A stretch of DNA of 64,000 bases from a virus. A program made the position numbers and the translations under genes. The DNA is taken from the IMG/VR virus record IMGVR_UViG_3300043548_000722, positions 1 to 64,000 of that record. The stretch is one strand, 5' to 3'. Positions 285 through 35,050 of this stretch are shown piece by piece. How positions within the stretch are numbered: the stretch's first letter is position 1; each line of letters begins with the position of its first letter. The notes under the pieces are model-generated. The model did no database searches. It had not been told where the DNA came from and was given only the letters and a program-made list of their open reading frames with translations.

Positions 285-1124
285 CTATTCGTCCTGGAAG
301 TCTTCAAGACCGGAGATTTGGAAATCTTCGATCCCTTCGTGGATGGTCTCAGTCACCGGCTGATGGTAGGTCGGAATCCCGTTACTTCTGTCGACGATTC
401 TACCACCACCAAGGCGCCGCACGCGGACATCATCGGTGTTCATCGCCAATCGTATAGAAGCAATGGTCTCGTCCGGTGTGAATTCGTACTCTGATGCGCG
501 TCTCGATCCTGTGATTAGGTCGAGAGACCTGAACTGGGCAGACTGTTTTGGACTGGTTTCCCAGGTCCATTGAAGTTGGAAGGGGATGTTAACCTGGCAC
601 ATGATCAGCTGCCCGGGGTCGCCGACAACAAGCTGACCTGGAGGACTGGGAGAGTTTACCGTAGGAGAGGGCCGTGCGATAGAGTAAAACCCACCTGGAC
701 TCTCCAACAGCCGCTGATTGACGCGAGTGTGGTGTGAGACGAGGTGCGCAAGCCGCATGGCGACGATGTCAGAATCTGCGAGCGTGTAGACGACAAGGTA
801 CCCAGAAAGAAGATCTGTCCTCTTTCGGGCTCCATTGTTCATGTTGTAGGACAGCAAGTTGTCGATGCCGATACCTGCATACTGGTAGGGTCCCATCACA
901 ACGGTGAGAGCGGGTCTCTTGCCCACTACTTCCGTATTTAGGGGAGCCTGTCCTCGAATGAGAATCTCTGAAACCTCATCGTCTGGTTCCCAGTGGAATG
1001 TTCCGGCTGGCATCCAGTTAAAGAGGCCCTGAAGATATTGCACATACAGACGCATCGCGTAGACAGCGGGATCATCTCCCCTGCCTACTTCAAGTGCGGC
1101 GCGTCGTGTATGCGCGAAGCTCAC
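285..1124 (-). CDS. putative tail terminator / neck protein
   Basis: 279 aa between head-completion genes and the sheath; RPALTVVMG-type strand. Function is from synteny only. Confidence 0.45.
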   Translation of the reverse strand: MSFAHTRRAALEVGRGDDPAVYAMRLYVQYLQGLFNWMPAGTFHWEPDDEVSEILIRGQAPLNTEVVGKRPALTVVMGPYQYAGIGIDNLLSYNMNNGARKRTDLLSGYLVVYTLADSDIVAMRLAHLVSHHTRVNQRLLESPGGFYSIARPSPTVNSPSPPGQLVVGDPGQLIMCQVNIPFQLQWTWETSPKQSAQFRSLDLITGSRRASEYEFTPDETIASIRLAMNTDDVRVRRLGGGRIVDRSNGIPTYHQPVTETIHEGIEDFQISGLEDFQDE

Positions 1125-1417
1125 TAGGAATTCTCGTATTTGTCTTGAAGGTGCTTAGCTAGCGTGAATGACCCAACACCAGCAGCCGTGCCTGCCGCGC
1201 TGCCCAGCAGCCCAGAGACTGCCGCCAACACACGATCTCTCTTTGTGGGACTCATTCTAGCCAGGCGAGAGACAACACCCGGAGTCTGCAGGGCCTCGCG
1301 AGCAAGTAGTCCACCTCCAATACCTCCAAGCAAGGTACCGGCACCTGTCGCCAGTGCCGGCAGCGCCACGATCTCTGCAATATCCGCAGATCTTTTATTC
1401 TTTGGCTCGTCACTCAT
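1124..1417 (-). CDS. small glycine-zipper hydrophobic protein
   Basis: 97 aa with two Gly-rich hydrophobic segments (LATGAGTLLGGIGGGLLA; VSGLLGSAAGTAAGVGSF); translationally coupled to both neighbours. Confidence 0.6.
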   Translation of the reverse strand: MSDEPKNKRSADIAEIVALPALATGAGTLLGGIGGGLLAREALQTPGVVSRLARMSPTKRDRVLAAVSGLLGSAAGTAAGVGSFTLAKHLQDKYENS

Positions 1418-2294: not shown

Positions 2295-2774
2295 TTAGCT
2301 CCTCAAGGAGGATCGCATGAGGCCCGCAGTCCCCAGCCCGACACCAGTTCCAAAGAGGGCCGCAAATGCTTTCGGGTTCTCCTTCTCAAGCTCTGCGATC
2401 TTCCGGTTGATTTCCAGAAACTTTTTCTTATATTCTGGCGTAATATCACCCACACTGTCCGCCTGGTTGTACTGTGCCTCTGTAACTAAGTTCTTACGCT
2501 CTCGTTTTGTCAGTCCAGACTCGTTGGGAGCAGTCCCCTTGTAGGTGAGGACTCCAGCAGGCACGCCCGTCAGCAACGCAGCAGCTCCGGTAATCGTACG
2601 GTTGTCTCTGATGAAGTCCTTCAATTTATGGAGACGGCGCGCGCTGGCCGTCTTCTCAGCACCACGAAGCTCTGCCCAGTACTCGACAGCAGCAAGCTGG
2701 CGCTCCATAGGAGATGCCGACTTCCACAGAGCGTCCGGAATATCCGAATGGGGATTGGTAAATAGATCTTCCAC
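2295..2774 (-). CDS. KxAS-motif glycine-zipper protein
   Basis: Track ORF 2295..2807; likelier start is GTG 2774 (SD GAGG). Has KSAS and EKTAS followed by two Gly-rich hydrophobic segments. Confidence 0.6.
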   Translation of the reverse strand: MEDLFTNPHSDIPDALWKSASPMERQLAAVEYWAELRGAEKTASARRLHKLKDFIRDNRTITGAAALLTGVPAGVLTYKGTAPNESGLTKRERKNLVTEAQYNQADSVGDITPEYKKKFLEINRKIAELEKENPKAFAALFGTGVGLGTAGLMRSSLRS

Positions 2775-2781
2775 GGAAGCC

Positions 2782-3282
2782 TCAGAAGTTCGAGAAGTAG
2801 ACGCCATTGATGACGAAGTACTCAGACTCTACACCACCGCCTTCGAAGGCGTACTCTACGTTCAGCGAAGACTTCACCCGCATCTTCTTTTGTTCGTAGG
2901 AATTGCGGAGCATCTGAATCCAGCCCATCAAGAACTGAGACTTGTCAGACACCGAGACGGAGATTCCTCCGTCCGAGTAGTTCATCTGGTTCCGCAGCTG
3001 AAGGAGTCCGACTGATTCCAGAATGCGAATGACTGCCGCCTCCCTCAGCATGCTGAGGGAGGGGAAGTTCTTGAGCCCTACATTCCCAATGAACGGTGGA
3101 GTCGAGTTGTAGTCGTCGATGGCGTCCACAACTGCCCACGCGATCATGCGATCGCTGGTCTCCTCGCCAGAGATCAGACGATTGAGTTCGGGGAAGTCGC
3201 GCAGGTAGAGGCGAATCATCGCCACGACCTCGTTCATCCTCTTGCTCGCCGAGGGAATGACTGTAGTGCTCTCAAAGGACAT
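2782..3282 (-). CDS. putative head-tail adaptor protein
   Basis: 166 aa helical protein (IRLYLRD...YSDGGISVS) with the size and position of an adaptor after the MCP. Confidence 0.55.
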   Translation of the reverse strand: MSFESTTVIPSASKRMNEVVAMIRLYLRDFPELNRLISGEETSDRMIAWAVVDAIDDYNSTPPFIGNVGLKNFPSLSMLREAAVIRILESVGLLQLRNQMNYSDGGISVSVSDKSQFLMGWIQMLRNSYEQKKMRVKSSLNVEYAFEGGGVESEYFVINGVYFSNF

Positions 3283-4392: not shown

Positions 4393-5523
4393 TCAGAAGA
4401 CGTTGATGTTCGGGAAGGTCAGGCCCTCAGCGACCTTGTTGTTGAGCGCGCCGATGGCGCTCTCCTCAACAGGGATGACCGACGTGGCGCTGGCGTCTGT
4501 CGCATCGCCCGGGTAGAGCTCGAGCTTGACGACGGCGGCGATGTTGCCAAAGCCCATGCCGACGTCCATCCAGGCCTGCCAGAAGATGCGGTTCGCGACC
4601 TTGTCGATGTAGAACTTCACGTCGTTCAGCGTGTAGTTCCGGCCGAAGAACTCCGGGGCCGTGAAGACGTAGACGTTCCCCTCGCGGAGGATGTCGTTCT
4701 TGATGGTCCGGATGATCCGAAGGCCCAACACCTTGTTGTAGGTGTAGCCATCGAGCGCCGTCTCGCTCTGGAGACGATCGCCGTAGTCCTCGTGGGTCCA
4801 CTGGTCGAAATCGTCCGCATCGCTCTCGGTCATGAGCATCAGAGCGGGCCGCAGGCGGCCAGCGCGGATGGTCTCACTGCCGACGACGATCTGGCGCTTC
4901 AGGAGCTTCTTGATGTTCACGATGTCAGCGCGCTGAATCGCGTACACGTCGAAGTCCGTGGCCGAGCCGCCCGACTGGGTCGCGAGAACGCCCTTGATCT
5001 TCGAGACGGTGAGCTGGCCACCGGCGACAGAGAAGGCAGCAGAGCCAGAGTTGCCCTCGGCCTGCATGGCGTTGACGCAGGACTCGACGTGGTTCAGGAA
5101 CTCGCGATCCTTCACCTCGACCATGTCCTTGAGGCTGTTCTCCTCGATGATGCGCGTGATGGGCATCTCGTAGGCCATCAGCTCCTGCTCAACGATCTCG
5201 AACTTGAGGGACGAGATGGTGAAGAAGGAGATGGCGTACCGCTTGCCATTCACGTACTCAGCCGTCGGCTGACCGCGGAAGTTCACGGCCATCGCCCGGG
5301 AGCCCGGCTCAATGTCCACGATCTTCACGAGCGTGTCATGCTCGGTGGAACGCTGAAGGTCGCCACGCACAACACGCTCGTTCGGAACGATCATGTCGGC
5401 GAAGCTGGACTCGCGGAGGCGGTCCTTGATGTAGTTGAGAGAGGCGGCTGCGGTCTTCGTTGGACCCTCGGTCTCGAGGCGCTCAATGAAGCCCGAGTTC
5501 ACCATATCTGCGGAGTAGTCCAT
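4393..5523 (-). CDS. major capsid protein (HK97 fold)
   Basis: 376 aa with strongly biased codons, SD AGGAG, followed by a terminator. Gene order is protease-scaffold-decoration-MCP. Confidence 0.8.
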   Translation of the reverse strand: MDYSADMVNSGFIERLETEGPTKTAAASLNYIKDRLRESSFADMIVPNERVVRGDLQRSTEHDTLVKIVDIEPGSRAMAVNFRGQPTAEYVNGKRYAISFFTISSLKFEIVEQELMAYEMPITRIIEENSLKDMVEVKDREFLNHVESCVNAMQAEGNSGSAAFSVAGGQLTVSKIKGVLATQSGGSATDFDVYAIQRADIVNIKKLLKRQIVVGSETIRAGRLRPALMLMTESDADDFDQWTHEDYGDRLQSETALDGYTYNKVLGLRIIRTIKNDILREGNVYVFTAPEFFGRNYTLNDVKFYIDKVANRIFWQAWMDVGMGFGNIAAVVKLELYPGDATDASATSVIPVEESAIGALNNKVAEGLTFPNINVF

Positions 5524-6154: not shown

Positions 6155-6520
6155 TTACTCGCCAGTGAGGCAGAAGGAAGTGAGGGGGTCAAGAGCCGAC
6201 CTGCCAGGACGGTCCGATAGATCAGCGATGCGAACATTGCCCGCGCTCGCCATCTTCACAGCCTCCCTGACGTTCTCAAGCTGCGCATGACCCCGGAGAT
6301 GCGCAATCTTCTCATCGAACGTCATGTGGGCGTTGAGGCCCTTGTCTTCCATCTCACGCGCGAGCTCAGCAACCTGAGAGTCGCGTGCAATAGAAGCAAG
6401 CTTTGTGCGGAGCTGGATGTTCTCCTGCTCCAGGCTCGCGACCTTTTCGGTCAGCGAGCGAATGGCAGCAGCACCTTTTGCGGAGACTACAGCCAGTTCT
6501 GCATGTCCGATCTTGAGCAT
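6155..6520 (-). CDS. putative scaffold protein (coiled coil, three KxAS)
   Basis: Start reassigned to ATG 6520 (SD GAGG). Coiled coil LTEKVASLEQENIQLRTKLAS, plus KMAS; sits just before decoration and MCP. Confidence 0.5.
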   Translation of the reverse strand: MLKIGHAELAVVSAKGAAAIRSLTEKVASLEQENIQLRTKLASIARDSQVAELAREMEDKGLNAHMTFDEKIAHLRGHAQLENVREAVKMASAGNVRIADLSDRPGRSALDPLTSFCLTGE

Positions 6521-6534
6521 TGCAGTCCTCGCGG

Positions 6535-7131
6535 TTAAAACTTTCTGAGTAGTTGGTCCAGTCGAGCCTGCCTCGCCTGGGATTCTGTCATCTGCATTGG
6601 CGAAGATGCAACCTTCGCGTGGGGAGATTGTAGCGGAGAAGTAATCGCTTCGCAAACGCCAATTAGAGCTTGTTTCACATGGGAGCCTAAATCTCCGGAG
6701 TCGATGTGATCGAACAGAACTGAGTACTCCGCGAGAGATGCTGACTTGTTTAGAGAGTGTGTAGTCCTGTTCATTTCATCGCTCACGTTCTCTGCCTGAA
6801 TAGGTAGCACTTCAGATCCGAGACGATAGTTAGGGTCAGGGCGCCTAAAGATTAAGTCTTTAAGAGACCTGTACCGCGCTCTTCCTGGATTTAGAGAGTC
6901 CAGCGTTCTCGACAGCGCCTTACCCGCGCGAAGTCCGTAGTGGCCTTCCGGAGAAGATGGTGCAGTCGACCCTACAAACCCGTGCTCACCTTCAACTTGC
7001 GCTTTGTAGGCGTCAGCACGATCGCCCTTTCCCATCGAGAAAAGAACGCCATCTCCGATATCGTGATAAAGGCGATCCTTATCCTCGTAGAAGACTGGGG
7101 CGGCGGCATGTTTTTTACGAGACGGGCTCAT
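6535..7131 (-). CDS. KxAS-motif head-region protein
   Basis: 198 aa; NKSAS, VKQA, AKVAS. Confidence 0.55.
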   Translation of the reverse strand: MSPSRKKHAAAPVFYEDKDRLYHDIGDGVLFSMGKGDRADAYKAQVEGEHGFVGSTAPSSPEGHYGLRAGKALSRTLDSLNPGRARYRSLKDLIFRRPDPNYRLGSEVLPIQAENVSDEMNRTTHSLNKSASLAEYSVLFDHIDSGDLGSHVKQALIGVCEAITSPLQSPHAKVASSPMQMTESQARQARLDQLLRKF

Positions 7132-7171: not shown

Positions 7172-8410
7172 CTACTCTCCTCCCTGGACGCCCTCTGCCT
7201 GCATCTGCCTAAGACGATCTGCCGCCGAACGCTTTCTATAGAGGTGGGCTCCCACTCCCGCCGCTGTAGCGAGCCCGGCGGCGCCTGCGGCCAGCCCAAG
7301 GTTTCTGCGGGTAAGGAATCTCCCCATTCCCTGGTTCGGAGCAGCGTCCATTGATCGCCCGAGTGTTTCCGCAGCCTCCACCGGCGCAGAGCTCATATCC
7401 ACAGCAGCTGCTGGCACCGACGCCGGCGCAGAGCTCATATCCACAGCAGCTGCTGGCACCTCCGGCCATCCAGGCCTGCCAACCCTGCCTGGAATGTACC
7501 TTTCCGATGGATGAGGAGGTATCTCAGCAGGAAACCCCTCCATTTGGGCGAACAGGTCGGGATCATTTTTAGCTATCTCATCCATTGCCTCGTCGAAGGC
7601 CAGTCTACCACTATCGGGGCTGCTCATGAGCCAATCTACAATTTTCTCTCTCTTGTCCGCTGGCAGCCGATTTATGTTGTCCGGAGTCATCCTCTTCTTC
7701 ACTCTAGCTGCCGCATCTTTCAGGTGCCCCATCCGAGCCGCGAGAGGGAAGATCTGCGCTGCGCTCGCATCGCCGAGGGTATCTCCCACATGTGCGAACG
7801 CCTCTGCAAGCCGAGCTCTCGTAGACTTCTTCAAGTTACGCTTGTTTGCAAGGACAGGCCCTTCGTTTGAATGCAAAGTAGCCCGGTAGGTTGAGTTTTC
7901 GTTAGCGGACGTAACTCCGGACAGGGTTTCCGCGTCGGATTCCGCAGGGCCGCCAACACCAGCGGTCTTATTGTTCATCAGGATGTCGTAGAGAGACTGG
8001 CCACCCGCTTGCTTAAACGATTCCCGTAGCGGCTTCTCGCCGTCACGAGTGTTTGCCGTCACGGAGCCGCTGACAGGGCTATTACCCGTGACCAGGCCCT
8101 TCGGTGCAATCCGAGTCTTCCCTTCTGTCGGCGCTACGCCTTGGACTCCGCTGGTAGAGGTGGCGCCCTGTGCGGGACTTGCCATGGCGCTCTTGTAGAA
8201 GTCCCTAATCATTTCCTGACGAAATCCGTCTGCCCGGTTTCCACCCGTTGCACTCAGAGAAACGAACTCGAGCGCACTTGCGACCTCCTGTGCCTCCTTG
8301 ACCAAGGAGGAGCCGGGGCGGGATGCAGTCTTCTCGGCTTCAATCGCCGTGTGGGAACGCGCACGAGCAGCTTCTAGGGCTTGGTCAATCATGCTTCTGT
8401 AGTTGCTCAT
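7172..8410 (-). CDS. KxA-motif head-region protein with C-terminal glycine-zipper segment
   Basis: 412 aa; EKTAS, KEA, KSA, KQA, KTA, KDA; C-terminal LGLAAGAAGLATAAGVGAHLYRKR. Confidence 0.65.
   Translation of the reverse strand: MSNYRSMIDQALEAARARSHTAIEAEKTASRPGSSLVKEAQEVASALEFVSLSATGGNRADGFRQEMIRDFYKSAMASPAQGATSTSGVQGVAPTEGKTRIAPKGLVTGNSPVSGSVTANTRDGEKPLRESFKQAGGQSLYDILMNNKTAGVGGPAESDAETLSGVTSANENSTYRATLHSNEGPVLANKRNLKKSTRARLAEAFAHVGDTLGDASAAQIFPLAARMGHLKDAAARVKKRMTPDNINRLPADKREKIVDWLMSSPDSGRLAFDEAMDEIAKNDPDLFAQMEGFPAEIPPHPSERYIPGRVGRPGWPEVPAAAVDMSSAPASVPAAAVDMSSAPVEAAETLGRSMDAAPNQGMGRFLTRRNLGLAAGAAGLATAAGVGAHLYRKRSAADRLRQMQAEGVQGGE
7381..7460. repeat. tandem duplication, 42-nt period (38 nt identical)
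   Basis: ccggcgcagagctcatatccacagcagctgctggcacc at 7381 and 7423; encodes VPAAAVDMSSAP twice. Confidence 0.95.
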
Positions 8411-8752: not shown

Positions 8753-9733
8753 TCAGATGTTGTAGCCGGCCATGCGGAGAAGCTGGACTGCGCGGGCGTC
8801 GACAAACGCCGACGACTGCTTCTCAGCCTCAGAAGGAGCCTCTTCCGCAGGCGCCTGCATGGCCTGCAAACGAGCCTTGCGGCGATCGTACAGCTTCTTG
8901 CCGCCGTAGACGCCCGCAGCCGTCAAGCCGGTGGCGCCTAAGCCGAGACCGATCTTCTTGCCGAGGCCCATCGACGAGGGGGCAGCCTTGGCGGCATCCG
9001 CCACTGCATCCGCCGCATCGGCTGCGGCGGCTGCCTCTTCGGCAACCTTCATGCCGACGTCAAAGCCGTAGACACTCGCGATCTTGACCAGTGCCGCAAG
9101 GTTTAGTGCAGACGACTGCTTCTCAGCTTCAGAGGATGTTTCCTCAGCATCAGCCTGCATAGCAGCTTTGCGCGCCTTGCGGCGATCGTACAGCTTCTTG
9201 CCGCCGTAGACGCCCGCGGCCGTCAAGCCGGTGGCGCCTAAGCCGAGACCGATCTTCTTGCCGAGGCCCATAGGAGGCTTTTCTGCGATCTTCTGGATCT
9301 CATCGGCATATGCACGAGCCATGTGACGACCAAGAATCTCTGCTTCAGCGAGCTTCTCGTGTGCATCCTGGACCATGGCCTCCTTGTCCTGACCCTCAGC
9401 CTCTGCAAGCTGTTCCGGGAGAACATTCTCGACGTAGTGATTGAAGAGCTGAGCCAGCTCTGCATCACTCATGTCGTCTAGATCGATGCCTTCGGCAGAA
9501 GCGGTCTTTTCGAAGAGGTCGATAACTTCGTTGTTCATGGCAGATGCCTCTTTGGTGGACGGGGCGGAACGGGAAACGAACTGGTTGAATAGAGATGTGA
9601 CCTGTGTTTCGCTCAGATCATCGAGGTTTACACCCTCGGCGGCGGCGGCTTTCTCAAAAAGGCGAACAGAAGCTGCTTTTTCGAGATCTTCTGCCGTGAT
9701 GCCCCGGGTTTGTAGTTCTGCGAGTAGAGACAC
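8753..9733 (-). CDS. KxAS-rich head-region protein with a duplicated glycine-zipper module
   Basis: 326 aa; KAAS, KEAS, KTAS, KIAS, two EKQSS; two copies of MGLGKKIGLGLGATGLTAAGVYGGKKLYDRRKAR. Confidence 0.75.
   Translation of the reverse strand: MSLLAELQTRGITAEDLEKAASVRLFEKAAAAEGVNLDDLSETQVTSLFNQFVSRSAPSTKEASAMNNEVIDLFEKTASAEGIDLDDMSDAELAQLFNHYVENVLPEQLAEAEGQDKEAMVQDAHEKLAEAEILGRHMARAYADEIQKIAEKPPMGLGKKIGLGLGATGLTAAGVYGGKKLYDRRKARKAAMQADAEETSSEAEKQSSALNLAALVKIASVYGFDVGMKVAEEAAAAADAADAVADAAKAAPSSMGLGKKIGLGLGATGLTAAGVYGGKKLYDRRKARLQAMQAPAEEAPSEAEKQSSAFVDARAVQLLRMAGYNI
8811..9271. repeat. internal direct repeat, 300-nt period
   Basis: 8874..8971 matches 9174..9271 (98 nt, one mismatch); 8811..8827 equals 9111..9127. 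Confidence 0.95.
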
Positions 9734-13299: not shown

Positions 13300-13317
13300 C
13301 AGAAACCTGGAGTGGGA

Positions 13318-23255: not shown

Positions 23256-23266
23256 TCGTACCTCTG

Positions 23267-27800: not shown

Positions 27801-30800
27801 ACGTCCAGGTCGCGAAGCTTTTCTTCGAGAACTGCGAAGCCTGACTTTTGGCCGACGGAGCCGGACTCTGTCAGCAACTTTTGAAACTCCCCGTCTGGCA
27901 TTTTCAGGAGTAGACGGATGGGCTCTTCAAACACAGGGTTGGGGATCCGAACCCCAAGATCCATATGTGTCCACTTCGTACCTTCCAGGCCTCCCGTCTT
28001 AACCTTGTCAAATAGGCCACCCTTTTCTTCTTTGGTGAGAGAGCCTTTGGCAGCAAGCGTTTTCTCAGGGAATGCCAGCGCACCCGAACTTTGAGCAAGC
28101 GTCTGCTTATCCGTCATGGGCATGAGAGAGTACTCTCTACCCTTGCGCTCAGTGTAGACGCCCATCGCGCGCAAGTAGTGAGTAAACTGCTCCATCGAAC
28201 GAGGAACCTTCGGAGGGGGCGGACGCTCTCCGCGCATGATGCGGGTCCAGACATCCTCTGCCTGCTCCCGGTCAGACTTGTAGGTCTGCATTTCTCGAAG
28301 GTTGTTTTTTGCACCATAGGCAAGGAGGGTGTACGAATCGAGGCCTCCGATTCTCTGGCCTCCCTCTCCAATGCCCGAACCCTGTGACGCCTCTCCCGTG
28401 GTCTTGTACGCGTAGCCGAAACCACCGGCACGGGCCGAGATCTTTTTCTCCGCCTGGTGATCCAGCTTCAAGATGTACTGGTTGCCTACGAGAACGTTTC
28501 CGAGGTTCTCGCCCGTCTCAGGATCGAATAGCTCCTCCGTATCCGAGACACTGTGTTTCTGCATCAAGTCCTTGACCATCGCAGAGTAGTCTGTAGAGGC
28601 ATCAAAGTTGTTGACGACGAAGGGCTTACCCGTCTTTAGGGCCACCTTACCCGCCACGCTCTCGAGAACCTGTCCAGGATTCATACGCGAGGGAATGCCT
28701 GCGGGAGACAACAAGACCTGGACGTGGTTGCCGTCCTTATCTTTCGGCATCTGGTCGTCGGGCAGGATCTTGGTCACGATCCCTTTGTTTCCATGACGGC
28801 CGGAGAGCTTGTCTCCGACCTCCATTGTCTGTTCAGTACGGATGTAGACCATGATCCGCCGACCGTTGTTGACCACCCGCGCAACTGTCCCATTGTACTC
28901 GTGATCCCACTTCACAGACGCGTCGGAGTAGTCCTGAATCGCGCCCTTCAAGCGACGACGGATGTCCTCCGTGTCTTTGGATATTGCCATCTTCTGAAGT
29001 TTTGCAATCAAAACATCCCCAGGCTCGACCTTCTGGCCGACCTGGATAAGTCCATTGTCATCGAGCTTCTGAAGAATCTCAGGCGTCGCCTTTACGGGTC
29101 CAGCATACTGGCGCCAGAGTTTCTTGTTGACGACGATGTTCGGGTGCATCTCCGCTTCAGCAACGTGAAGATGGCTCGACACAAGCTTCTCGGCGGCGGA
29201 CTCCGAGATGACAATGCCGTCCTCGAAGTTGTACCCACGATACGGAATGTATGCGACTCGCAGGTTTGTTCCGAGAGACAGCTTTCCCTGCTTCGTAAAG
29301 TTTGAGTCGGCGAGAAGCTGGCCTTGGCGAACTTTATCGCCCACAGCAACCACCGGATCGGAGTGAAGCATGTGCTTCGCGCCATTGAGCGGGAAGTTGT
29401 TGTAGATGGCGTGGGTGTACTTCTTACCGTCTGTACCCAAAACAATAATACGGTCTTTTTTAACCTCAGTGACATTACCATCCGCATCAGACAGGACGGC
29501 TGCGGTGGCTCCAACAATGTCCTCGTACGTTGATCCCGCAGATGCCTGTGTCTGGACCAGCGGGGCCTCACGGTTTCTCAAGCCAACAGCCTGCTCTTGG
29601 TGCTTAGCGGCCATCATGGCGCGGTTGCCATTGTCGTTTTGTACAAACGGAATCAGGTTTGCACTGGCTGCGAAGAGGAGCTTTGCGGATGGAAGGATGT
29701 AGTCAACATCCTTCCATGCCCGCTTCGTTGTGTTCCTGTCCTTGTCATATACAACGACAAACTCAGAGAGTGGCGTGACCTTAGCCGTTCCATCTGGCTT
29801 CTTCTCGACCTTGGCCTGGTCAGGATACGCGACAACCGCCCGCTCCAGATCGGCGGCACTCTTTCGTTCAATCTTTCCAGTGCGGACATTTACGACCTGC
29901 GCCATCAGGTCGTGCCCAAATTTCTGAGCACCCAGCGGAACGTGGAGGATGATTCCAGTGTGCGAACTTTCCGGGGTCTGAAGTGGGTCAAGCATCCCGA
30001 GATGGCTGGGATTGATCAGCTTATCCTGCATCAGGTTGACGTTGTCTCCCTTGATGCCTCCAAACTCTGCGCCCAAGATGGTTGTGCGCGTATGATTGGA
30101 AAGGAACTGGAGAGGATTTGTCTGCGTTGGAAGCTGACCGGCTTTAAAGGGTTTAATGATCGCGGCGCCATACCCAGACACAGATGCGGGAATAATGTCC
30201 TGGATTCTATCCTTGCGATCGACATTGTTACGGATCTTGCGCGTGAGCGCATAGATCGTCTTGCCCTTTGTCAGTTCTTCATAGACGAAGTCCTCTGCCC
30301 CAAAAAGTCTTTTGTTTGTGAGAGACTGACGGTCATCCTCGGGAACATCTCCACGGCTGATGTCCACCAGTTTCTTTGCCGAAAGTAGCAGGGCTTCGCC
30401 CGTGATCGACGAGAACTCCTTGCCGAAGGCAGACTTCATTGTCTGTGGGCTGACCTCAGCAGACTCAAATGTCTCCTTTACATAGGCTGCCGCAGCTGAC
30501 ACTTCCGGAGGCTTGTAGTCCGGTCCCGCGCGCCGACCCTCAACCGCCTTGTGGAAGGAAAGCAACGCCTTCGAGCTACCCTTGGCCTCGTTGACGGCAA
30601 AAATCTTTTCCCCGAGCGCGCTCTTCATCTGCCCGTCGCTAACGCCCATCGCTACCAGGATTGGGTAGATCGGCACCTCCACCGACGATGTCGCGCTGCT
30701 CTTGATCGTCATCGTGATCAAGCCGAGCTTCTTAGGATCTTTACGTTCAATGTAAAGATCGAAGGAACCAACCTTGCTGCCTGCGGCGACGTTCCATTTT

Positions 30801-31216
30801 GCGAGCAGATCACCGTTCTGCGCTTCCGCGTGGTACGCGCCGGGATTGAGCCGGAACACGCTGTCCAGCTGCATCTCGTTCCCTCCGACGATGTAGCTGT
30901 AGCGCGTGGTGATTTTAGGAATCTTTGCGAGCGTACGAGATCTCTGATCCAGCACCTTCCCAGTTGCCTTATCAATCAGACGAAAGTTTCCGACAAGCTC
31001 TGGGCCCCAGGTCTGATCGTTCATCTTGGCTTCGAGCTGACTGTTGTAGTTGCTGGGATTGAATTGGGCCGACCCGGTCGCGTCGTCATCCTCAACTTCC
31101 AGCTTTACCAGCTCGAGACGATGCTTACTTCCCTCGATAGGAAAGTGAGAAGAAATCGCCTCTTTTGTCTTCTGAACCAGAAGATTGTAGCTTTCGGTCG
31201 GGTTCAGATTGGACAT
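24866..31216 (-). CDS. rpoBC: DNA-directed RNA polymerase, fused beta-beta' single polypeptide
   Basis: Beta motifs QTPES, LIPF..NDNGNRAMM, GYNFEDGI, GDKLSGRHGNKG, PSRMNPGQ. Beta' motifs LGKRQDLSGRSVI, catalytic NADFDGD (26996..27016), bridge helix HGARKG, ICATCYG, trigger loop GEPITQMQMRTFHTGG. Confidence 0.97.
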   Translation of the reverse strand: MSNLNPTESYNLLVQKTKEAISSHFPIEGSKHRLELVKLEVEDDDATGSAQFNPSNYNSQLEAKMNDQTWGPELVGNFRLIDKATGKVLDQRSRTLAKIPKITTRYSYIVGGNEMQLDSVFRLNPGAYHAEAQNGDLLAKWNVAAGSKVGSFDLYIERKDPKKLGLITMTIKSSATSSVEVPIYPILVAMGVSDGQMKSALGEKIFAVNEAKGSSKALLSFHKAVEGRRAGPDYKPPEVSAAAAYVKETFESAEVSPQTMKSAFGKEFSSITGEALLLSAKKLVDISRGDVPEDDRQSLTNKRLFGAEDFVYEELTKGKTIYALTRKIRNNVDRKDRIQDIIPASVSGYGAAIIKPFKAGQLPTQTNPLQFLSNHTRTTILGAEFGGIKGDNVNLMQDKLINPSHLGMLDPLQTPESSHTGIILHVPLGAQKFGHDLMAQVVNVRTGKIERKSAADLERAVVAYPDQAKVEKKPDGTAKVTPLSEFVVVYDKDRNTTKRAWKDVDYILPSAKLLFAASANLIPFVQNDNGNRAMMAAKHQEQAVGLRNREAPLVQTQASAGSTYEDIVGATAAVLSDADGNVTEVKKDRIIVLGTDGKKYTHAIYNNFPLNGAKHMLHSDPVVAVGDKVRQGQLLADSNFTKQGKLSLGTNLRVAYIPYRGYNFEDGIVISESAAEKLVSSHLHVAEAEMHPNIVVNKKLWRQYAGPVKATPEILQKLDDNGLIQVGQKVEPGDVLIAKLQKMAISKDTEDIRRRLKGAIQDYSDASVKWDHEYNGTVARVVNNGRRIMVYIRTEQTMEVGDKLSGRHGNKGIVTKILPDDQMPKDKDGNHVQVLLSPAGIPSRMNPGQVLESVAGKVALKTGKPFVVNNFDASTDYSAMVKDLMQKHSVSDTEELFDPETGENLGNVLVGNQYILKLDHQAEKKISARAGGFGYAYKTTGEASQGSGIGEGGQRIGGLDSYTLLAYGAKNNLREMQTYKSDREQAEDVWTRIMRGERPPPPKVPRSMEQFTHYLRAMGVYTERKGREYSLMPMTDKQTLAQSSGALAFPEKTLAAKGSLTKEEKGGLFDKVKTGGLEGTKWTHMDLGVRIPNPVFEEPIRLLLKMPDGEFQKLLTESGSVGQKSGFAVLEEKLRDLDVDTELKAAEKKLQTATENELNVAYKRVRYLRALKELDIKPVDAYTNRVLPVLPPTLRRVSIGFDGTQIIDPANKMYAIIGQMTRQLEQAEKEKMPVGEIQRIQAEIYNTTKALRVTGMQMEGKQVPSLMDKLTGNQPKQSFFQTGVLGKRQDLSGRSVITPDPEMPLDEVGVPREMAMEMYKPFVIKELWRNMGRATSPGEARMMIKKNHPAANEALERVVRDRPALMKRDPSLHMFSLMAFRPRLIEGKSIKIHPLVTGGFNADFDGDTMALYVPITEGAVQEAKNMMPSKNLFSPTSGGLMVTPSQDSVLGIFQATEWGKPVPGQFTEDQAIQAVRAGKLKVYNVIKVTGHSKPTTAGRLMINRTLPAQFRGDEELLYDSSFRMAKGKMKKFATKIARATPEEFAKMIDEWKALGFNLAFKNGSSVKLNDFHDGYKLRDEILAKYKKEEEAVLKGAGSKAAKDEKIISIYEKARKELKEAGEARYNSRLDNGMWDWARSGAKGDWNQFGQMVMGPLLVQDPLNRTVPFAITKSFGEGLPVSQYYASLHGARKGTIDRASATAKPGALTKELINTVIDNTIKSKDCGTVRGALLSSMEADIEGRFLAGEVPLKGGETIPKGTLITPQLRSKIKNDGPKKILVRSPLYCNEVKGICATCYGLSERGSLYPVGTNVGIIAGHALGEPITQMQMRTFHTGGVGGTSGVGDYFTAAENLFKVPAKLKGEATLSTVSGKVEKIESDALGGKTVTIAGKVHTVPFTNPLLPNIRVGVEVDKAEALSEGRKNPHHVLDITKSMSAVRMHLADSLNELYVETTGNERRRNIETVIRAMTDLTRVDDPGDDHAYLRGQLVPLSEIERKNKELRAMNKREIKHSPQLKPLDKMPLAGQEDWMARLNFQRLQETYTEGAAQNWKSDIHGHPIPGIAHGAEFGLEPPGSTKLPNAPGVPDRMTNIPKPGQVPTPAPQAPQKSPGFFSFL

Positions 31217-31446: not shown

Positions 31447-31457
31447 GACCGCGGGGC

Positions 31458-31741: not shown

Positions 31742-31992
31742 TTCCGTTTCGATGCGACTGGTGCGACGCGACTGCCACGACAGATGACCGCATGGTCAGC
31801 CTGGCGCGGCATCGTGTTGTACGTCGTCCCCGCAAGTGGGACATTGAGGACGAAACCTTCTCAACCTTCGGAAGCGAGGCGATGTTCCACGAAAAGTGCT
31901 TCGTGGACAACGCGCGAGAAATTCTTGACGGTCTATACAGTGGTATCCAGATCGACCAGCCCAGGAAGAGACCGGCCGATCTCACTCGCTGA
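31738..31992 (+). CDS. small Zn-finger protein
   Basis: CDWC...HEKC; overlaps the upstream stop (ATGA). Confidence 0.55.
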   Translation: MIPFRCDWCDATATTDDRMVSLARHRVVRRPRKWDIEDETFSTFGSEAMFHEKCFVDNAREILDGLYSGIQIDQPRKRPADLTR

Positions 31993-31994
31993 GG

Positions 31995-34031
31995 TCAGCC
32001 GATTGCTCTTCCTGGGTCAGCCTGTGGCGTTCCGTTAGGTGCCGGATTTTGCTGCGCGTTGAGAGGATCGATCTGCGAGCCGCGGTCATTCATTAGTTGG
32101 ATAACCAGCTGATACAACGGAGGATTCTCCATCTGCATTTGCTGAAGAGCTTGATACATGGCTTCTTCGCCCTGTTCTTTTTTTAGCATGCGTAAGAACG
32201 ATGCTGCGCGCTGCGCGATGTACCGCAGGTCCACACCCCCTGACCCAGGCTGGATTGGTGACTGGGCAGACGCCATAGCGGCGGGCATTCCATCCTGATT
32301 CGGAGTGGCCGCATTCTCATCGTAGGCGGTAGCTCCTTCTGGAAGCCCAGGAGTTTGCTGAGCCTGATCTCCAGCGGGTCCCTGCTGAGCGGCCGGGTCT
32401 TGCGGCATTGCGCCCTGCGCTTGCTGCTGTGCGGCAGCCTGCTGCGCTGCCTGCTGCATCTCCATTTGTACCTGGCCCTGTGCGCGCATGGTCAGGGCCT
32501 GCGCCTTGGCTTGGTAGCGTGAGGTCCGAAGCTGGGCTTCTCCCTGAATATCTGCCGAAGCGACCTGCATGCGGCGATTGGACTGAAGCTGCTTCTTGAT
32601 CTCTTCGCGCATGCGCTCCGACTCGAGATCGAAATCCTCCCCAAGTTCTTCCATGAGGCGATGATCGCTGATCTTCTGAGCCTGGTTGAGTTGGAGGTAG
32701 AACATGCTTCTTTGCAAGTCATCAGCCATACGGAACTTGTCGAATCTCGACGAGACCTTGGGCCACTCCATGAAGGAGGCAATCTTACCCATGATGAAGA
32801 CGTTGATCAGCTCGTGGCGCTGCTTGTTGTACCCCAGGAACATGTTTTCCAGTGCCCGGAGCGAGGTACTCGATCCAGACCACTGGAGTCCTCCGAAGAT
32901 GAACTCCACAGGAATGCCGGCGCCAGCAAGCATCTGCTCAGCCAGAAGACGCATCTCTTGGTACATCAACAGGGCGCGACCTTGTCCACCGATCTGCTGG
33001 AATCCGATGTTGACAGGAAGGACCGGGATGTAGTTGTGATCCCGCTTCCACATGTTGATTTCTTCATCTACCCGACGTTTCCAGTTCGTCAGGTTGTAGG
33101 CCCCGTAGGGCCCCTCGTTGCCTCCAGTGTTCTGGCCCGGGAAGATCATCCGCATGGGAACGATGTTCTCCATGAGGATTGCCTCGTTGGCCTTCTTCAT
33201 GACCTGGAGGTAGAACGCATCCTTCAGAAGCGGGAAGATCAGGGGCGTGCCCCAGCCTTGATCCTTCTGGGCGATCGTCGGTCGCTTCAGATGGTAGAGG
33301 TTGTCCTCCGAAAAGAGGAGTGACTTGTTCGCGCGGGCGGCTTCAAGGAACTCGAGGGGAAGCGACTCAATCTCGTCGCAGTCTCCAAGTTTGATGTCGT
33401 TGATCACGCTCTTGGGTAGGCGGAAGTAGTACTTGGTCTTTCCAGTAATCTCGTTGTGCTTGATGTCGATGTTCTCTGGATTCCACCGAACCAGGCGAAT
33501 CTGGCGGAAGCTCCGAACGTAGACATCGTGCTGCTTCGCGTAGCCCTCGTGGCCACAGTCGCACTTGTGAAGGTAGAAACGAGAGTCACGCCACTTGTAG
33601 CGGAATCTGTTGGTCTTGGCACGGTAGCGTGCGCCGCAGGAAGCACAGATGAGGTACTTCTCGAACGGCAGGAACACCGAGACAAAGGCGTTTCCGTATA
33701 CGAAGTAGTCGAGCCCGACCTCGACCTGAAATGAGCGCAGCTTGAGGTGATCCTCTACCTTCTTATAAAGCTTCATCACCTCCGGGTCGTCTGTCTCAAA
33801 AATAAGAGGGGTGACCGGGTACTCTGCCATTTTGGAGCACGCGGCGTTGATCACCGGATTTGTCAAGAAGTAATACCGGCACCACTTGTGTAGTTCGTGC
33901 TGATTAGATGGAAGGAACTGCTGAGAGATGTCAAAGAACGGCGACGGATAGCGAATGCCGAATCCTCGGCCACCCTCAGTGGTGACTGGCCTCGGATTAA
34001 AACGGTTTACTTCGCTGGTAATGACGTTCAT
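31995..34031 (-). CDS. portal protein with Zn-ribbon insert and Gln/Ala-rich C-terminal extension
   Basis: YFLTNPVINAACSKMAEYP, DYFVYGNAFV, RWNPENI, LYHLKR...GWGTPL and AGIPVEFI are portal-like motifs. Confidence 0.85.
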   Translation of the reverse strand: MNVITSEVNRFNPRPVTTEGGRGFGIRYPSPFFDISQQFLPSNQHELHKWCRYYFLTNPVINAACSKMAEYPVTPLIFETDDPEVMKLYKKVEDHLKLRSFQVEVGLDYFVYGNAFVSVFLPFEKYLICASCGARYRAKTNRFRYKWRDSRFYLHKCDCGHEGYAKQHDVYVRSFRQIRLVRWNPENIDIKHNEITGKTKYYFRLPKSVINDIKLGDCDEIESLPLEFLEAARANKSLLFSEDNLYHLKRPTIAQKDQGWGTPLIFPLLKDAFYLQVMKKANEAILMENIVPMRMIFPGQNTGGNEGPYGAYNLTNWKRRVDEEINMWKRDHNYIPVLPVNIGFQQIGGQGRALLMYQEMRLLAEQMLAGAGIPVEFIFGGLQWSGSSTSLRALENMFLGYNKQRHELINVFIMGKIASFMEWPKVSSRFDKFRMADDLQRSMFYLQLNQAQKISDHRLMEELGEDFDLESERMREEIKKQLQSNRRMQVASADIQGEAQLRTSRYQAKAQALTMRAQGQVQMEMQQAAQQAAAQQQAQGAMPQDPAAQQGPAGDQAQQTPGLPEGATAYDENAATPNQDGMPAAMASAQSPIQPGSGGVDLRYIAQRAASFLRMLKKEQGEEAMYQALQQMQMENPPLYQLVIQLMNDRGSQIDPLNAQQNPAPNGTPQADPGRAIG

Positions 34032-35050
34032 GACTGCTCATCCTTTCCCTGACCGAATGCTCTGTCTAAGACAGAGCCAGCAGATCCTGTAACGTCAGAA
34101 GCCAGTCCTTCAAATGGAACTGCTGCCATCCCTACCGCTGACGGAACGATCAGTTTCTGGCTTAGGAAAGACCTCTTTCCGCCTGTGATCAAGTTAGATT
34201 TACCTAATCCTAAGTTTCTACCGGTAAATAGATGAGCCGTTCCAGCGGTGATACCCGCAGCAGTTAGGCCACGAGCGAGCCTCTCCGCAACACCACGCTC
34301 ATTGCCCTCATCGTCGGTGGAGGGGAGCGCGTTGGCGACACCAGTGACTCCCACCTGGCCGACCTCAATCGCCCGCTCGCCTGGCATATACGTGGAGATG
34401 CCCCCGCGTAATTTTACGTTCTGTGCGCCAGCTTCTTGGCCGATCTGCCGATACGCGTCAAGCAACTCTTCCTCTGGAATCATTTCTCCCGCGCGCTGGC
34501 GATCCATGATGCTTGTAATTTTAGATCTTAAGTTGTCGCTAGCGTTAAACTTCGGATCTTTGTTAAAAAATCCAGTCAGCCCACCAGAGGACCTTTCGCC
34601 TGCGCTTGCCCATCCTCCCTTGCGGGCTGCTCCAGCCGTATCTGATAACGCGTCAAACTGTGTTGCAGTGCCATCAAGCGCGTTTTCAAAGGCCTCATTC
34701 ATAAGCTCCACGCGTTTAGACCTAGCAGCCCCCTGAGTAAACTCGTCGGCATTATTTCCTGCGAAGCTGGCTCCGCTTGACAGCCCGCGCTTAATACTTT
34801 GAACGGGCTTAGTCGCTACTTCCTTAGCTGCCGTAAAGAGCTTACCGGCCCCGCTAGGATTACGAAGTAGGGCCGCACCAGCTACCAAACCTCCGATTGC
34901 GGGGAGAACCACGCCCGGACCCGTGAAGTTTCTTTGTATGATATTTTTTTTCTTTGGCTCCTGTGCCTCTGGCGCAGAGGGGGTAGCCGAAGAAATCCCA
35001 GCTTGTTTTTGCAACTCAAGTGAGAACGAGTAAAGAACGCTTTTATTCAT
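34028..35050 (-). CDS. ELQKQA-leader glycine-zipper membrane-type protein
   Basis: YSFSLELQKQA leader, several Gly-rich hydrophobic segments, lower-GC codons. Confidence 0.65.
   Translation of the reverse strand: MNKSVLYSFSLELQKQAGISSATPSAPEAQEPKKKNIIQRNFTGPGVVLPAIGGLVAGAALLRNPSGAGKLFTAAKEVATKPVQSIKRGLSSGASFAGNNADEFTQGAARSKRVELMNEAFENALDGTATQFDALSDTAGAARKGGWASAGERSSGGLTGFFNKDPKFNASDNLRSKITSIMDRQRAGEMIPEEELLDAYRQIGQEAGAQNVKLRGGISTYMPGERAIEVGQVGVTGVANALPSTDDEGNERGVAERLARGLTAAGITAGTAHLFTGRNLGLGKSNLITGGKRSFLSQKLIVPSAVGMAAVPFEGLASDVTGSAGSVLDRAFGQGKDEQS

Follow-up and report, generated by a model that had tools for sequence, protein, structure and literature searches.

On the evidence of sequence alignment, sites of the type K-x-A-S mark the points at which conserved protein parts end and fast-changing glycine-rich segments begin in the head proteins of an uncultured phage. 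The DNA analysed is a stretch of 64,000 nucleotides (IMG/VR record IMGVR_UViG_3300043548_000722, positions 1 to 64,000; hereafter the window), and all the genes described below lie on its minus strand. The motif is most likely the cutting site of the phage's own head protease; it may instead, or in addition, serve for docking. The explanation that we prefer, and to which we give about an even chance, is that the proteins concerned would be internal or ejection proteins, in which conserved N-terminal parts load the protein, the protease frees the cargo, and the composition of that cargo is like that of the C-termini of P22 gp7 and gp16.

The phage and its head block

The window is the head-morphogenesis block of a myovirus-type phage (108-kb genome, 110 proteins) that is kin to Salmonella phage Arash, an orphan, contractile-tailed myovirus of 180.8 kb (PMC10585845). 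By sequence, the nearest cultured relatives are Arash and the Vibrio phages D69, D181 and D148. The likeness to phiKZ-like phages that had been suggested does not extend to sequence: comparison of the capsid protein and of the protease detected no relatedness, the polymerase is a fused beta-beta' chain and the cleavage motif is different. Arash has homologs, at 25–34% identity, of the portal, polymerase, protease, capsid protein and the protein encoded at 12181, in the same gene order, and K-x-A-(S/A/G) is enriched there too, alongside glycine-zipper modules of the same kind.

The major capsid protein (4393..5523, phrog_2522 match) carries K23-T-A-A close to its N-terminus, a candidate propeptide cut, where the capsid protein of Arash has K27-E-A-G. 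A coiled-coil, scaffold-like protein with the sites EKVAS, TKLAS and VKMAS (6155..6655) is encoded between the protease and major capsid protein genes. The K-x-A-S-rich protein at 35829..36923, whose sites are kept in relatives, is probably a core or scaffold-type protein that would be cut into pieces; many core-type proteins rich in the motif are found within the head block. This block also contains a fused beta-beta' multisubunit-type RNA polymerase (24866..31216; Pfam Rpb2_6, 4e-67, and Rpb1_2, 1e-32), which is probably virion-borne.

The prohead protease and its probable motif

The product of 9744..11639 (631 aa, with an extension of ~330 aa behind the fold) is, by its modelled structure, a prohead serine protease of the assemblin/T4-gp21 fold. 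The AF2 model (pLDDT 88.5) was aligned by VIA-align with T4 gp21 (Z 9.1) and the proteases of VZV (Z 8.5), HCMV (6.6) and KSHV (5.7), the unrelated rows scoring Z 5.0 or less, and the top ~30 rows in Foldseek were assemblins and gp21; identity to the matched structures (T4 gp21 and the herpesvirus proteases) is 9–16%. The predicted catalytic residues H138 and S194 are invariant in 60 diverse homologs.

The folded core (residues 41–290, nt 10770-11519) is bracketed by two KTAS sites, K37 (nt 11520-11531) and K293 (nt 10752-10763), which sit in the only disordered stretches of the model (residues 27–37 and 293–300), and further KVAS, KVA and KIA sites follow in the extension. K37 and A39 reach at least 90% conservation in the same 60 homologs, down to 35% identity, and the bracketed arrangement is kept across a family of ~2,800 clusters, for which there is no Pfam model.

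The motif itself is strongly enriched. The 31 head-block proteins contain K-x-A-S 37 times, where 4.3 ± 2.1 would be expected (maximum 11 among 1000 shuffles), while permuted control motifs stay at background (2–8 occurrences) and the remaining 23,450 aa of the genome contain ten. Among 136 distant homologs of the protein that bears the protease, the enrichment is 7.2-fold. In ~12 head proteins, the major capsid protein included, the first site lies at residues 15–40, as in a propeptide. The proposal that KxA is a head protease site is supported in the form K-x-A(S/A/G), which behaves accordingly, and by the protease identified here. The enzyme would recognise K-x-A followed by S, A or G and probably cut between the alanine and the next residue, like herpesvirus assemblins at Ala|Ser.

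Breakpoints at the sites

The core DNA is 97–100% identical to that of the related phages of group A, and nine islands cannot be aligned. The glycine-zipper parts are likewise unalignable in relatives whose core genes are 97–100% identical. It had been predicted that variable insertions would start or stop at KxA, and this was found in six proteins, the break lying 0–5 residues from a K-x-[AS]-[SAGE] site. Of 18 identity change points, 12 are no more than 5 aa from a site, where chance would give 3.3 (P<2e-4); for distinct breakpoints the figure is 7 of 12.

One of the six is the carrier protein at 12181..13404, which has many K-x-A-S sites. Its junction is K338-T-A (nt 12385-12393), beyond which a variable C-terminal module (nt 12184-12384) consists of a basic stretch, a Gly/Ala helix and a basic tail. 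The N-terminal part is 96–99% identical to that of relatives in groups A, A3 and A4, and the tails are 18–24% identical; four tail types meet at this one point, and groups E–H have no tail. These independent types share one build, namely a stretch that is basic and amphipathic, then ~20 aa of uncharged Gly/Ala helix, and basic residues to finish. The protein has weak homology to Arash gp220; a relative of the tail was looked for anywhere and none was detectable.

The remaining five follow the same principle. In the acidic-repeat protein at 8753..9733 (junction K148-I-A, nt 9284-9292) the variable middle (nt 8819-9283) holds two copies of a Gly-zipper and basic-tail module, an internal duplication with 74% identity over 72 aa, and alignment and change points show that the last ~20 aa, after an EK-x-SS site, are conserved. 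The protein at 7172..8410 keeps its N-terminal 231 aa up to LK231-D-A-A (nt 7712-7720), with the identity break 2 aa from the site; its variable tail (nt 7175-7711) is a Gly/Ala helix with a basic tail, and in groups E, F2 and G the protein stops a little past the site. The order is reversed at 6535..7131, where the C-terminal ~70 aa after NK129-S-A-S (nt 6739-6747) are conserved and the break is 1–4 aa away: the variable N-part carries Gly-zipper modules in groups B, D and G, and group A has almost none. At 2295..2807 the conserved part is only 54 aa long and the break falls at AEK52-T-A itself (nt 2646-2654, distance 0 aa); the variable C-part (nt 2298-2645) has two Gly/Ala segments, and groups F2 and H have extra modules, each of those in H being preceded by K-E-A-[AS]. 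Finally, the N-domain of 21642..23270, which is 98% identical to that of group A, reaches to INK-I-S-S (nt 22731-22739), 1 aa from the break, and the C-part (nt 21645-22727), with several Gly/Ala segments and a Cys-rich stretch, is unrelated. At this break point two modules are inserted in groups B, D and G, and none in A and C.

The modules had been called swappable, which stands as far as replacement between lineages is concerned; none was found on two different carriers.

Composition of the glycine-zipper segments

The segments quoted in the original prediction were all found in the genes that it named, on the minus strand. With a strict detector (17-mers with no D, E, K or R, at least 4 Gly, at least 7 Gly+Ala and a mean Kyte-Doolittle value of at least 0.7), 24 segments were counted in 15 of the 110 genome proteins, 14 of them in the head block; the genome total is eightfold over 200 per-protein shuffles (mean 3.0, maximum 8). 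Nine of the roughly 11 proteins proposed to bear zippers pass this detector; 11639 passes only a relaxed version and 12181 neither, although a Gly/Ala-rich hydrophobic stretch is present in the sequence of the latter. The suggested AT-richness was not found: the variable islands have a GC content of 0.557 against 0.560 for the core, and the segments are GC-richer (0.60–0.74), bar one at 0.46.

The segments were also said to lie usually downstream of KxA. As a rule of close spacing this fails, since 10 of 16 window segments are within 40 aa of a site against 6.7 expected (P=0.065) and the 99 unique segments of the clade show no excess (P about 0.4). The basic ends attributed to them are not significantly enriched in the window, where at least 3 K/R occur in the 12 residues after 4 of 16 segments (P=0.21), but they are very strongly so across the clade, where at least 3 K/R follow 62 of the 99 unique segments against 16.7 expected. 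This shared build of helix plus basic end implies that the architecture is kept despite sequence turnover.

These figures bear on the idea that the variable tails are functionless, being clipped off past the last site, lost and left free to evolve, with Gly/Ala arising easily at 56% GC. In its favour, the tails are dispensable in groups E–H, have no detectable homologs and obey no rule of site-to-helix spacing. We nevertheless regard the idea as unlikely, because independent tail types are built alike, because segments and basic tails (the latter nearly fourfold) exceed expectation, and because drift by point mutation cannot yield unalignable DNA beside flanks of 97–100% identity.

Collinear modules, leaders and fusions

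Not all modules are variable: 11639, 1124, 24349 and 34028 are collinear in all relatives. The propeptide of 11639..12184 ends in EKMAS (K28) and is followed by a conserved hydrophobic segment (residues 45–65, nt 11990-12052) and a well-conserved C-terminal domain, a build shared by Arash gp221 in the same place. The 97-aa protein of 1124..1417 has two Gly-zipper helices and is 44% identical to its group A counterpart overall, between flanking genes that are 90–100% identical.

Three window proteins begin with the leader MDK(I/L)AAYQ, which another 12 distinct ORFs in the related loci also carry, with differing cargo. Two are encoded by neighbouring Gly-zipper genes, 18865-19416 and 19425-19985 (leaders at nt 19354-19416 and 19923-19985), which amount to a 1.1-kb insertion when compared with group A, where 7 nt separate the flanking orthologs; A4 has one such gene. 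In the third, 24349..24858 (MDKIAAYQ), the leader and the terminal zipper (residues 137–159, nt 24382-24450, then a basic end) are conserved and the middle is variable. The pair has Pfam matches to Gly-zipper_Omp (E=0.013, on 18865-19416) and P22_gp7 (E=0.07), both weak and sub-threshold. The former match, together with the virion-type RNA polymerase gene in the same block, would suit modules that build or coat a lipid compartment round the incoming genome and polymerase, such as an early-infection vesicle of the phiKZ-like kind or SlyB-like lipid nanodomains; this we consider very improbable, since we saw no kinship in sequence to phiKZ-like phages, and both the single-chain polymerase and the cleavage motif set this phage apart from them.

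The claim of a polyprotein-like logic fits, in that fusions and fissions of neighbouring genes are found beside the sites. The protein of 34028..35050, with a short propeptide ending in QK15-Q-A-G and a Gly-rich helix (nt 34865-34930), is 39% identical to that of A4 despite a portal that is 96% identical; in most relatives it is fused to the upstream gene (35054-35842), and the joint adjoins the K-x-A-G site. The conserved 500-aa protein of 20052..21554, whose K-x-A-S sites cluster at both ends, has in group G a leader-plus-Gly-zipper unit fused to its N-terminus.

A proposed route from prohead to host envelope

The helices are only marginally hydrophobic when set against the P22 holin, a genuine membrane protein. 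Their hydrophobicity sums, +3 to +7 kcal/mol, do not by themselves predict membrane insertion, and they resemble those of P22 gp7 and gp16, in which, as a positive control, the same detector finds two segments and one segment respectively, all C-terminal (gp20 and the holin have none). By eye, no signal peptide was seen in the named proteins, bar 1124-1417, which has a basic stretch and then its first hydrophobic helix. Membrane anchors are classically built as a hydrophobic helix with basic residues behind it, and the sites do lie between conserved parts and helices, as if head-assembly proteins were tethered to the inner membrane until the protease released the head and left the tethers behind. 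That the helices act as such anchors is quite unlikely in view of their marginal hydrophobicity, of the fact that they are optional in relatives, of the lack of an evident signal or insertion sequence and of the report of Arash Gly-zipper proteins in purified virions.

Those Arash proteins (gp213, gp220, gp221 and gp224) were detected in virions together with the polymerase, whose two parts, gp206 and gp216, were among the most abundant proteins in mass spectrometry, in a proteome of 116 proteins (PMC10585845) where contamination is possible. The same paper has zero occurrences of "protease" and "transmembrane" and does not mention the motif or the modules (PMC10585845). The idea of packaged cargo gains from the detection of the corresponding proteins along with RNA polymerase in Arash, within this 116-protein list; the polymerase is two genes in Arash and one fused chain here. 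Virion location would also suit helices that act inside the capsid only, packing against each other and touching DNA through their basic tails in an inner core or "inner body" that organises DNA, polymerase and other cargo, with no membrane role after ejection. The strong enrichment of basic tails after the helices, the marginal hydrophobicity and the many K-x-A-S-rich core-type proteins of the block speak for this. We still find it rather unlikely: in type the segments match those of P22 gp7 and gp16, which are described as building the conduit through host membranes and periplasm, and helices with a structural task inside the head should be conserved, not lost in some relatives and replaced in near-identical ones.

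Most head-block proteins have a propeptide at the N-terminus, or else a conserved "carrier" part of larger size, with a site at its end; in the ejection-protein explanation that we prefer, these parts would bring the protein into the prohead. The Gly/Ala-zipper helices beyond the sites, usually with a basic tail, would be cargo that the protease releases and the head retains, their marginal hydrophobicity, as at the C-terminal ends of gp7 and gp16, letting them stay soluble during assembly. On exit from the virion, in company with the DNA, the RNA polymerase and the remaining packaged proteins, they may insert into the host envelope as oligomers. Cargo is replaced or lost between close phages while carriers stay nearly identical, and this turnover would likely reflect selective pressure from the host envelope, from superinfection exclusion or from defence systems.

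Comparison with known systems

In giant phages of the phiKZ/SPN3US type, the cleavage motif ends in Glu and the polymerase is split into several subunits, unlike the single fused chain found here. In these phages, as is proposed for the present one, the prohead protease cleaves many head proteins, and ejection proteins pass into the host cell as a bolus (PMC5694885, PMC7411985, PMC10052503).

The ejection proteins of P22 (gp7, gp20 and gp16) and T7 (gp14, gp15 and gp16) are, like the proteins proposed here, head-internal, with marginally hydrophobic Gly-rich helices and important basic ends. Those of short-tailed phages are likewise mosaic, fast-diverging and soluble before ejection (PMC8954989), and superinfection exclusion selects changes in their C-terminal regions (PMC10883804). 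The segments of gp7 and gp16 scored alike with those of the phage, and gp7 loses an N-terminal peptide (record note), as the propeptide layout here would suggest. Significant homology to P22 ejection proteins was not found, the Pfam P22_gp7 match being below the cut-off. P22 and T7 are short-tailed, whereas the closest cultured relative here is contractile-tailed; they use three dedicated proteins instead of small modules spread over ~11 genes; and release here would, unlike theirs, be by the phage prohead protease.

With herpesvirus assemblin, made as a pUL26-type precursor with R- and M-sites, the protease shares its fold according to two structure aligners, as well as the order of an N-terminal protease, a site that would serve for self-release and, behind it, a long extension in which more sites lie. 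Alanine at P1 and serine at P1' would be common to both, the R- and M-sites of pUL26 having Ala at P1 and Ser/Thr at P1' (PMC4498786). Unlike in the herpesvirus enzyme, Lys at P3 appears obligatory and there is an extra site ahead of the protease domain.

The leader proteins find their closest parallel in the internal proteins of T4 (IPI-III and Alt), where a short N-terminal leader, the capsid targeting sequence, is common to otherwise unrelated proteins and is directly followed by a site for the prohead protease gp21. The T4 motif is L/I-x-E, from which K-x-A-(S/A/G) differs, and the leaders have no sequence similarity. In both systems, cargo varies between close relatives and is expected to be packaged and injected (the T4 system is reviewed in PMC9026906 and PMC9958956). 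The cargo of T4 consists of basic globular proteins and that of the present phage mostly of glycine-zipper helices. Moreover, unlike T4, this phage has whole conserved domains as carriers besides short leaders, and its sites also lie between domains, so that genes can fuse and split.

Organization of the head block

The window, in which no tRNAs and no Rfam matches were found, is the opening 64 kb of one contig of 107,650 bp. Its head and virion block extends from 285 to 36923 on the minus strand and contains the large terminase (14491–16272, minus strand; phrog_675, 1.8e-53), the major capsid protein (4393–5523, minus strand) and the portal (31995–34031, minus strand), the last two recognized by weak PHROG matches, as well as a fused beta-beta' RNA polymerase of 2116 aa (24866–31216, minus strand; Pfam Rpb2_6 4e-67, Rpb1_2 1e-32). 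A replication module with helicases, a family-A DNA polymerase and RecA lies on the plus strand at 37–51 kb. The order of the head genes (portal, and further on protease, scaffold-like protein and capsid protein) is identical in Salmonella phage Arash, which, together with the Vibrio phages D69, D181 and D148, is the closest cultured relative; judged by sequence, all of them are distant, with 25–34% identity in capsid protein, portal, polymerase and protease. The capsid protein has no relative among 185,579 bacterial and archaeal genomes, and therefore gives no clue to the host.

The polymerase is encoded as one chain at 24866–31216, and its homologous parts in Arash are two genes, gp206 and gp216, about 5 kb apart with reverse-strand genes included in between. 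A gap of 780 bp (31217–31994) separates the polymerase and portal genes and holds no convincing minus-strand gene; translated comparison with divergent relatives is best on the plus strand (ORFs 31421–31741 and 31738–31992), and small opposite-strand genes may be present there.

A motif concentrated in the head proteins and its putative protease

The head block contains 37 copies of the motif K-x-A-S, compared with 4.3 ± 2.1 in shuffled sequences (maximum 11 in 1000), while permuted control motifs occur there 2–8 times and K-x-A-S itself is at background in the remaining genome. Around the sites, position −2 is hydrophobic and −1 is Glu; then come the Lys, Thr or Val, Ala, and finally Ser, which is commoner there than Ala or Gly. 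In roughly twelve proteins of the head block the first site falls at residues 15–40, the major capsid protein among them (K23; K27 in the capsid protein of Arash), and sites are dense in the scaffold- or core-like proteins encoded at 12181–13404, 35829–36923, 20052–21554, 8753–9733 and 6155–6655. A short leader, MDK(I/L)AAYQ, is common to the proteins whose genes start at 18865, 19425 and 24349, and ends in K-x-A near residue 20. The corresponding pattern M-[DN]-K-[ILV]-A-[AS]-Y heads, besides these three proteins, 12 more distinct ORFs in related contigs; the cargo of those ORFs is varied, mostly of the glycine-zipper kind and in some cases without a zipper. As a query, the leader of 24349–24858 retrieved only seven close relatives, and its degenerate DNA pattern occurs at eight IMG/VR loci, several of them unrelated.

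The candidate enzyme is encoded at 9744–11639. It matches a head maturation protease family weakly (phrog_18299, E = 1.5e-4) and has no match in Pfam, where its family is without a model, or, in a profile search, among the sequences of solved structures. When all of 1.84 billion cluster representatives were scanned, its N-terminal protease domain turned up in 2,838 clusters, about 2,800 at the 50%-identity level. Modeling of this domain depended on the depth of the alignment, since a shallow one gave a pLDDT of 34 and 60 diverse homologs were required to reach 88.5. The best match of the predicted structure in VIA-align is T4 gp21 (Z 9.1, rmsd 2.9, 132 residues aligned), followed by the proteases of VZV (Z 8.5), HCMV (6.6) and KSHV (5.7), with unrelated entries at or below 5.0; the top Foldseek matches are all herpesvirus proteases (assemblins) and gp21, with a best E of 2.8e-3 and probabilities of 0.92–0.97. 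By these structural comparisons, the modeled domain has the fold of the assemblin-type prohead serine proteases, and its gene lies, as in that class, among those for portal, scaffold and major capsid protein. All 60 homologs have H138 and S194, and nearly all have H137; hhalign pairs S194 with serine 140 of gp21, at a probability of only 0.3% in a comparison that is insignificant as a whole.

Within the protease itself, disorder in the model is limited to residues 27–37 and 293–300, which are the positions of two KTAS sites. K37 and A39 persist in 90% or more of the homologs, even those as distant as 35% identity, and K-x-A-S is enriched 7.2-fold in 136 distant members of the family, with control motifs near 1. 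The protein is thus laid out as site, protease, site and a long extension with further sites, an arrangement close to that of the release and maturation sites of herpesvirus pUL26, which have Ala at P1 and Ser or Thr at P1' (PMC4498786). This layout, the fold, the bracketing of the domain by sites and the enrichment of the motif together are the reason for reading K-x-A|(S/A/G) as the probable cleavage site of the protease family. Motif enrichment and domain bracketing likewise point to a putative activity of the enzyme on the head proteins at this motif. Both the family and the motif are new.

Several homologs of the protease (P0066, P0076, P0091 and P0097, among others) reach a length of about 1000 aa and contain domains typical of inteins or homing endonucleases (PF14528, PF13403, PF14890). 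The terminase ortholog of one group of related loci (group B; L015/L019) has 1006 aa versus 593 in the window, which suggests an insertion of a similar type.

Glycine-zipper segments

A strict detector of uncharged, Gly/Ala-rich hydrophobic 17-mers identified 24 segments in 15 of the 110 proteins, 14 of them in the head block, compared with 3.0 (maximum 8) in shuffles. The zipper sequences quoted in the original prediction are where it placed them, and the observation from which it started is real in its core. GxxxG occurs seven times in 18865, four times in 19425, three times in 8753 and 0–2 times in the other proteins, and [GAS]xxx[GAS] 2 to 10 times, so that the repeated small-xxx-small pattern in an uncharged helix by which transmembrane glycine zippers are recognized is present.

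Some of the properties first attributed to these segments did not withstand measurement. Several modules had been described as more AT-rich than the core genes, and the variable parts have a GC content of 0.557 against 0.560 for the core, the segments themselves being GC-richer; the segments had also been placed, usually, downstream of a K-x-A site, and the distance to the upstream site is no shorter than expected by chance, either in the window or across the clade. The basic residues said often to end the segments are very clear across the clade (62 of 99 unique segments versus 16.7 expected) and not significant in the window (4 of 16).

Searches of Pfam and PHROGs with the modules returned nothing significant: the best match to Gly-zipper_Omp (E = 0.013) reaches 15.8 bits where 25 are required, P22_gp7 (PF25688), which requires 28 bits, is matched in its C-terminal part with 13.4 bits (E = 0.07) and a second time at E = 0.52, and the protein atlas gave no usable match for 18865–19416. 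The protein encoded at 8753–9733 contains an internal tandem duplication of glycine zipper, basic tail and amphipathic end (74% identical over 72 aa), and its acidic N-terminal repeats vary in number, with two here and three in the related group A.

Identity breaks near the sites

The head block was compared with 34 loci from related IMG/VR contigs. The core genes are 97–100% identical in DNA to those of the closest group, and among them lie nine islands that cannot be aligned: 1125–1440, 2290–2640, 6745–7740, 8570–9290, 11950–12370, 13990–14430, 18890–20000, 21555–22720 and 23490–24670. Eight of the nine overlap glycine-zipper genes. The exception, 13990–14430, is situated between 12181–13404 and the terminase; a plus-strand ORF of 147 aa there (14012–14455) has no Pfam match. 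The last island also spans most of a variable protein of 361 aa encoded at 23267–24352 on the minus strand, which lacks a zipper segment and is 52% identical to its closest relatives, with neighboring genes at 89–98%; its weak PHROG match is confined to residues 53–132, and its N-terminal region looks like a candidate baseplate-spike OB fold.

The expectation that variable parts would be bounded at K-x-A sites was borne out. An automatic change-point scan located 18 sharp identity breaks, of which 12 are no more than 5 residues away from a K-x-[AS]-[SAGE] site, where chance would give 3.3 (P < 2e-4); in terms of distinct breakpoints the figure is 7 of 12. One example is 12181–13404, whose first 340 residues are 96–99% identical in four genomes and are followed, after K338-x-A, by four unrelated types of tail, and which in more distant relatives ends at this very junction. 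The break in 2295–2807 falls directly after AEK52-T-A, and some relatives carry several extra modules at this point, each of them preceded in group H by K-E-A-[AS]. The break in 21642–23270 falls at a K-x-S-S variant of the site, where two modules are inserted in some relatives and none in others. Gene fusions and splits adjoin sites as well: 35054–35842 and 34028–35050 form one ORF in most relatives, and the ortholog of 20052–21554 in one group begins with a fused leader-plus-zipper unit. The modules of the genes starting at 11639, 1124, 24349 and 34028 are collinear in all relatives, though fast-diverging.

As for the idea that the modules are swappable, they are replaced or lost between lineages but, with composition correction, no module appears on two carriers. 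Matches between carriers that are seen without the correction vanish with it, and a search of 5.8 billion proteins with the 12181 tail gave 810 candidates, none significant and without a self hit. Since no module is shared and this tail has no relative, the comparison documents replacement and loss, not the shuffling of a common pool.

Three other sources of the variability were considered and rejected. A diversity-generating retroelement and drift by point mutation are both at odds with variants that differ in length and with DNA that cannot be aligned beside identical flanks. Microhomology crossover exactly at the site is contradicted by 12181, where synonymous differences start about 10–15 codons upstream; the boundary is therefore the end of protein constraint and not a crossover hot spot.

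Virion proteins of Arash and genes beyond the window

Arash, which is cultured on S. Typhimurium ATCC 14028, is a myovirus with a genome of 180.8 kb (PMC10585845). Its genes run in the order portal, polymerase and, further on, gp220 (similar to 12181), gp221, protease gp222, gp223, gp224, gp225 and capsid protein gp226, with K-x-A motif sites in gp220 (seven), gp223 (six), gp225 (five) and gp224 (four) and glycine-zipper segments in gp213, the gp220 tail, gp221 and gp224. Among its virion proteins, polymerase subunit gp206 ranks first in abundance, and the proteome also includes gp213 and every one of gp220–gp225 (PMC10585845). The published list of 116 virion proteins comes without peptide data, so that detection of the corresponding proteins supports packaging in the head only loosely; the article is silent on both protease and motif (PMC10585845).

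Beyond the window, at 92–100 kb, a protein of 839 aa with several domains (92115–94634, minus strand) belongs by its match (7.5e-32) with the PHROG family "minor head protein and DNA pilot" (phrog_220), and one of 1129 aa (96385–99774, minus strand) combines an SNF2-type helicase with a C92 papain-like peptidase domain, its C-terminal part weakly matching endonuclease VII. Both (92115–99774, or 7216–14875 of locus L036) have K-x-A sites, the first also a glycine-zipper segment, which fits the same loading logic as that of the head-block proteins. A further protein of 1050 aa (85162–88314, minus strand; L036:263–3415) has no family match; close to its N-terminus lies an uncharged, Gly-rich hydrophobic region of 52 residues, and it contains another three segments of this type. 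In Arash a similar region is present in gp4, the second most abundant virion protein, and the 1050-aa protein is possibly a tape-measure or ejection protein.

Interpretation and comparison with known systems

Taken together, these observations are best read as a protease-processed system of internal or ejection proteins, in which the modules would be cleaved off, packaged, oligomerise and act on membranes. A more far-reaching proposal, considered rather unlikely, is that the K-x-A-(S/A/G) sites act as general slots, so that a peptide or domain of any kind behind such a site of a carrier is packaged, cut free and delivered, that lineage-specific zippers build an inner-membrane entry pore, and that the sequence of this pore sets compatibility with host envelopes and superinfection-exclusion proteins. 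If it were true, exchange at cleavage sites would be a main route by which a large uncharacterised clade changes its entry machinery. Should the readings hold, they would also define a sizeable, so far unannotated phage head protease family that cuts at Ala|Ser as the herpesvirus enzymes do and needs Lys at P3, a "processing code" from which the mature proteins of the virion and the injected cargo could be predicted for hundreds of uncultured phages of 100–200 kb, and a concrete case in which recombination boundaries coincide with protease sites, the head cargo evolving in the manner of a polyprotein whose parts can be exchanged. Arash, a distant cultured relative, has both the motif and the modules, and the predictions are therefore testable by standard phage genetics and proteomics.

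The original prediction had looked to the phiKZ-like phages and to delivered modules that build an entry conduit or vesicle. The vesicle finds no support, and nothing in the sequence links the window phage to that group: its capsid protein and protease have no phiKZ-type matches. The phiKZ-like phages have a split, multi-subunit virion polymerase and a cleavage motif ending in Glu, which differ from the single, fused chain of 2116 aa and the K-x-A-S motif found here.

Applied to phage P22 as a control, the detector marks gp7 twice at its C-terminus and gp16 once, and does not mark gp20 or the holin. Simple sums on the Hessa scale are +5.8 for gp7, +7.5 for gp16, +3.2 to +7.4 for the window modules and +1.7 for the holin, so that the modules are as marginally hydrophobic as known ejection proteins. 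The uncharged, Gly-rich, marginally hydrophobic C-terminal helices of gp7 and gp16 recur in the window modules, although the window proteins score below the cut-off of the gp7 family model (PF25688). Known ejection proteins are soluble in the virion, insert into membranes afterwards and are mosaic, and in T7 infectivity depends on the basic residues at the C-terminus of gp16 (PMC8954989). Superinfection exclusion favors altered C-terminal regions in such proteins (PMC10883804), which is a plausible reason for the turnover of the modules.

The system also recalls the capsid-targeting system of T4, where a conserved leader ending at a site is attached to unrelated cargo, and where the cargo is hypervariable between close relatives; both features are found in the window. 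The T4 gp21 cleavage motif is L/I-x-E, and neither it nor the T4 leader is related in sequence to the leader and the K-x-A-(S/A/G) motif described here, so that, judged by sequence, the window system is similar in its working and is not a member. What distinguishes it from the systems of T4 and of the short-tailed phages is a new protease family with a new motif, the use of whole domains as carriers, and the fact that the putative cleavage sites are the seams of the mosaic.
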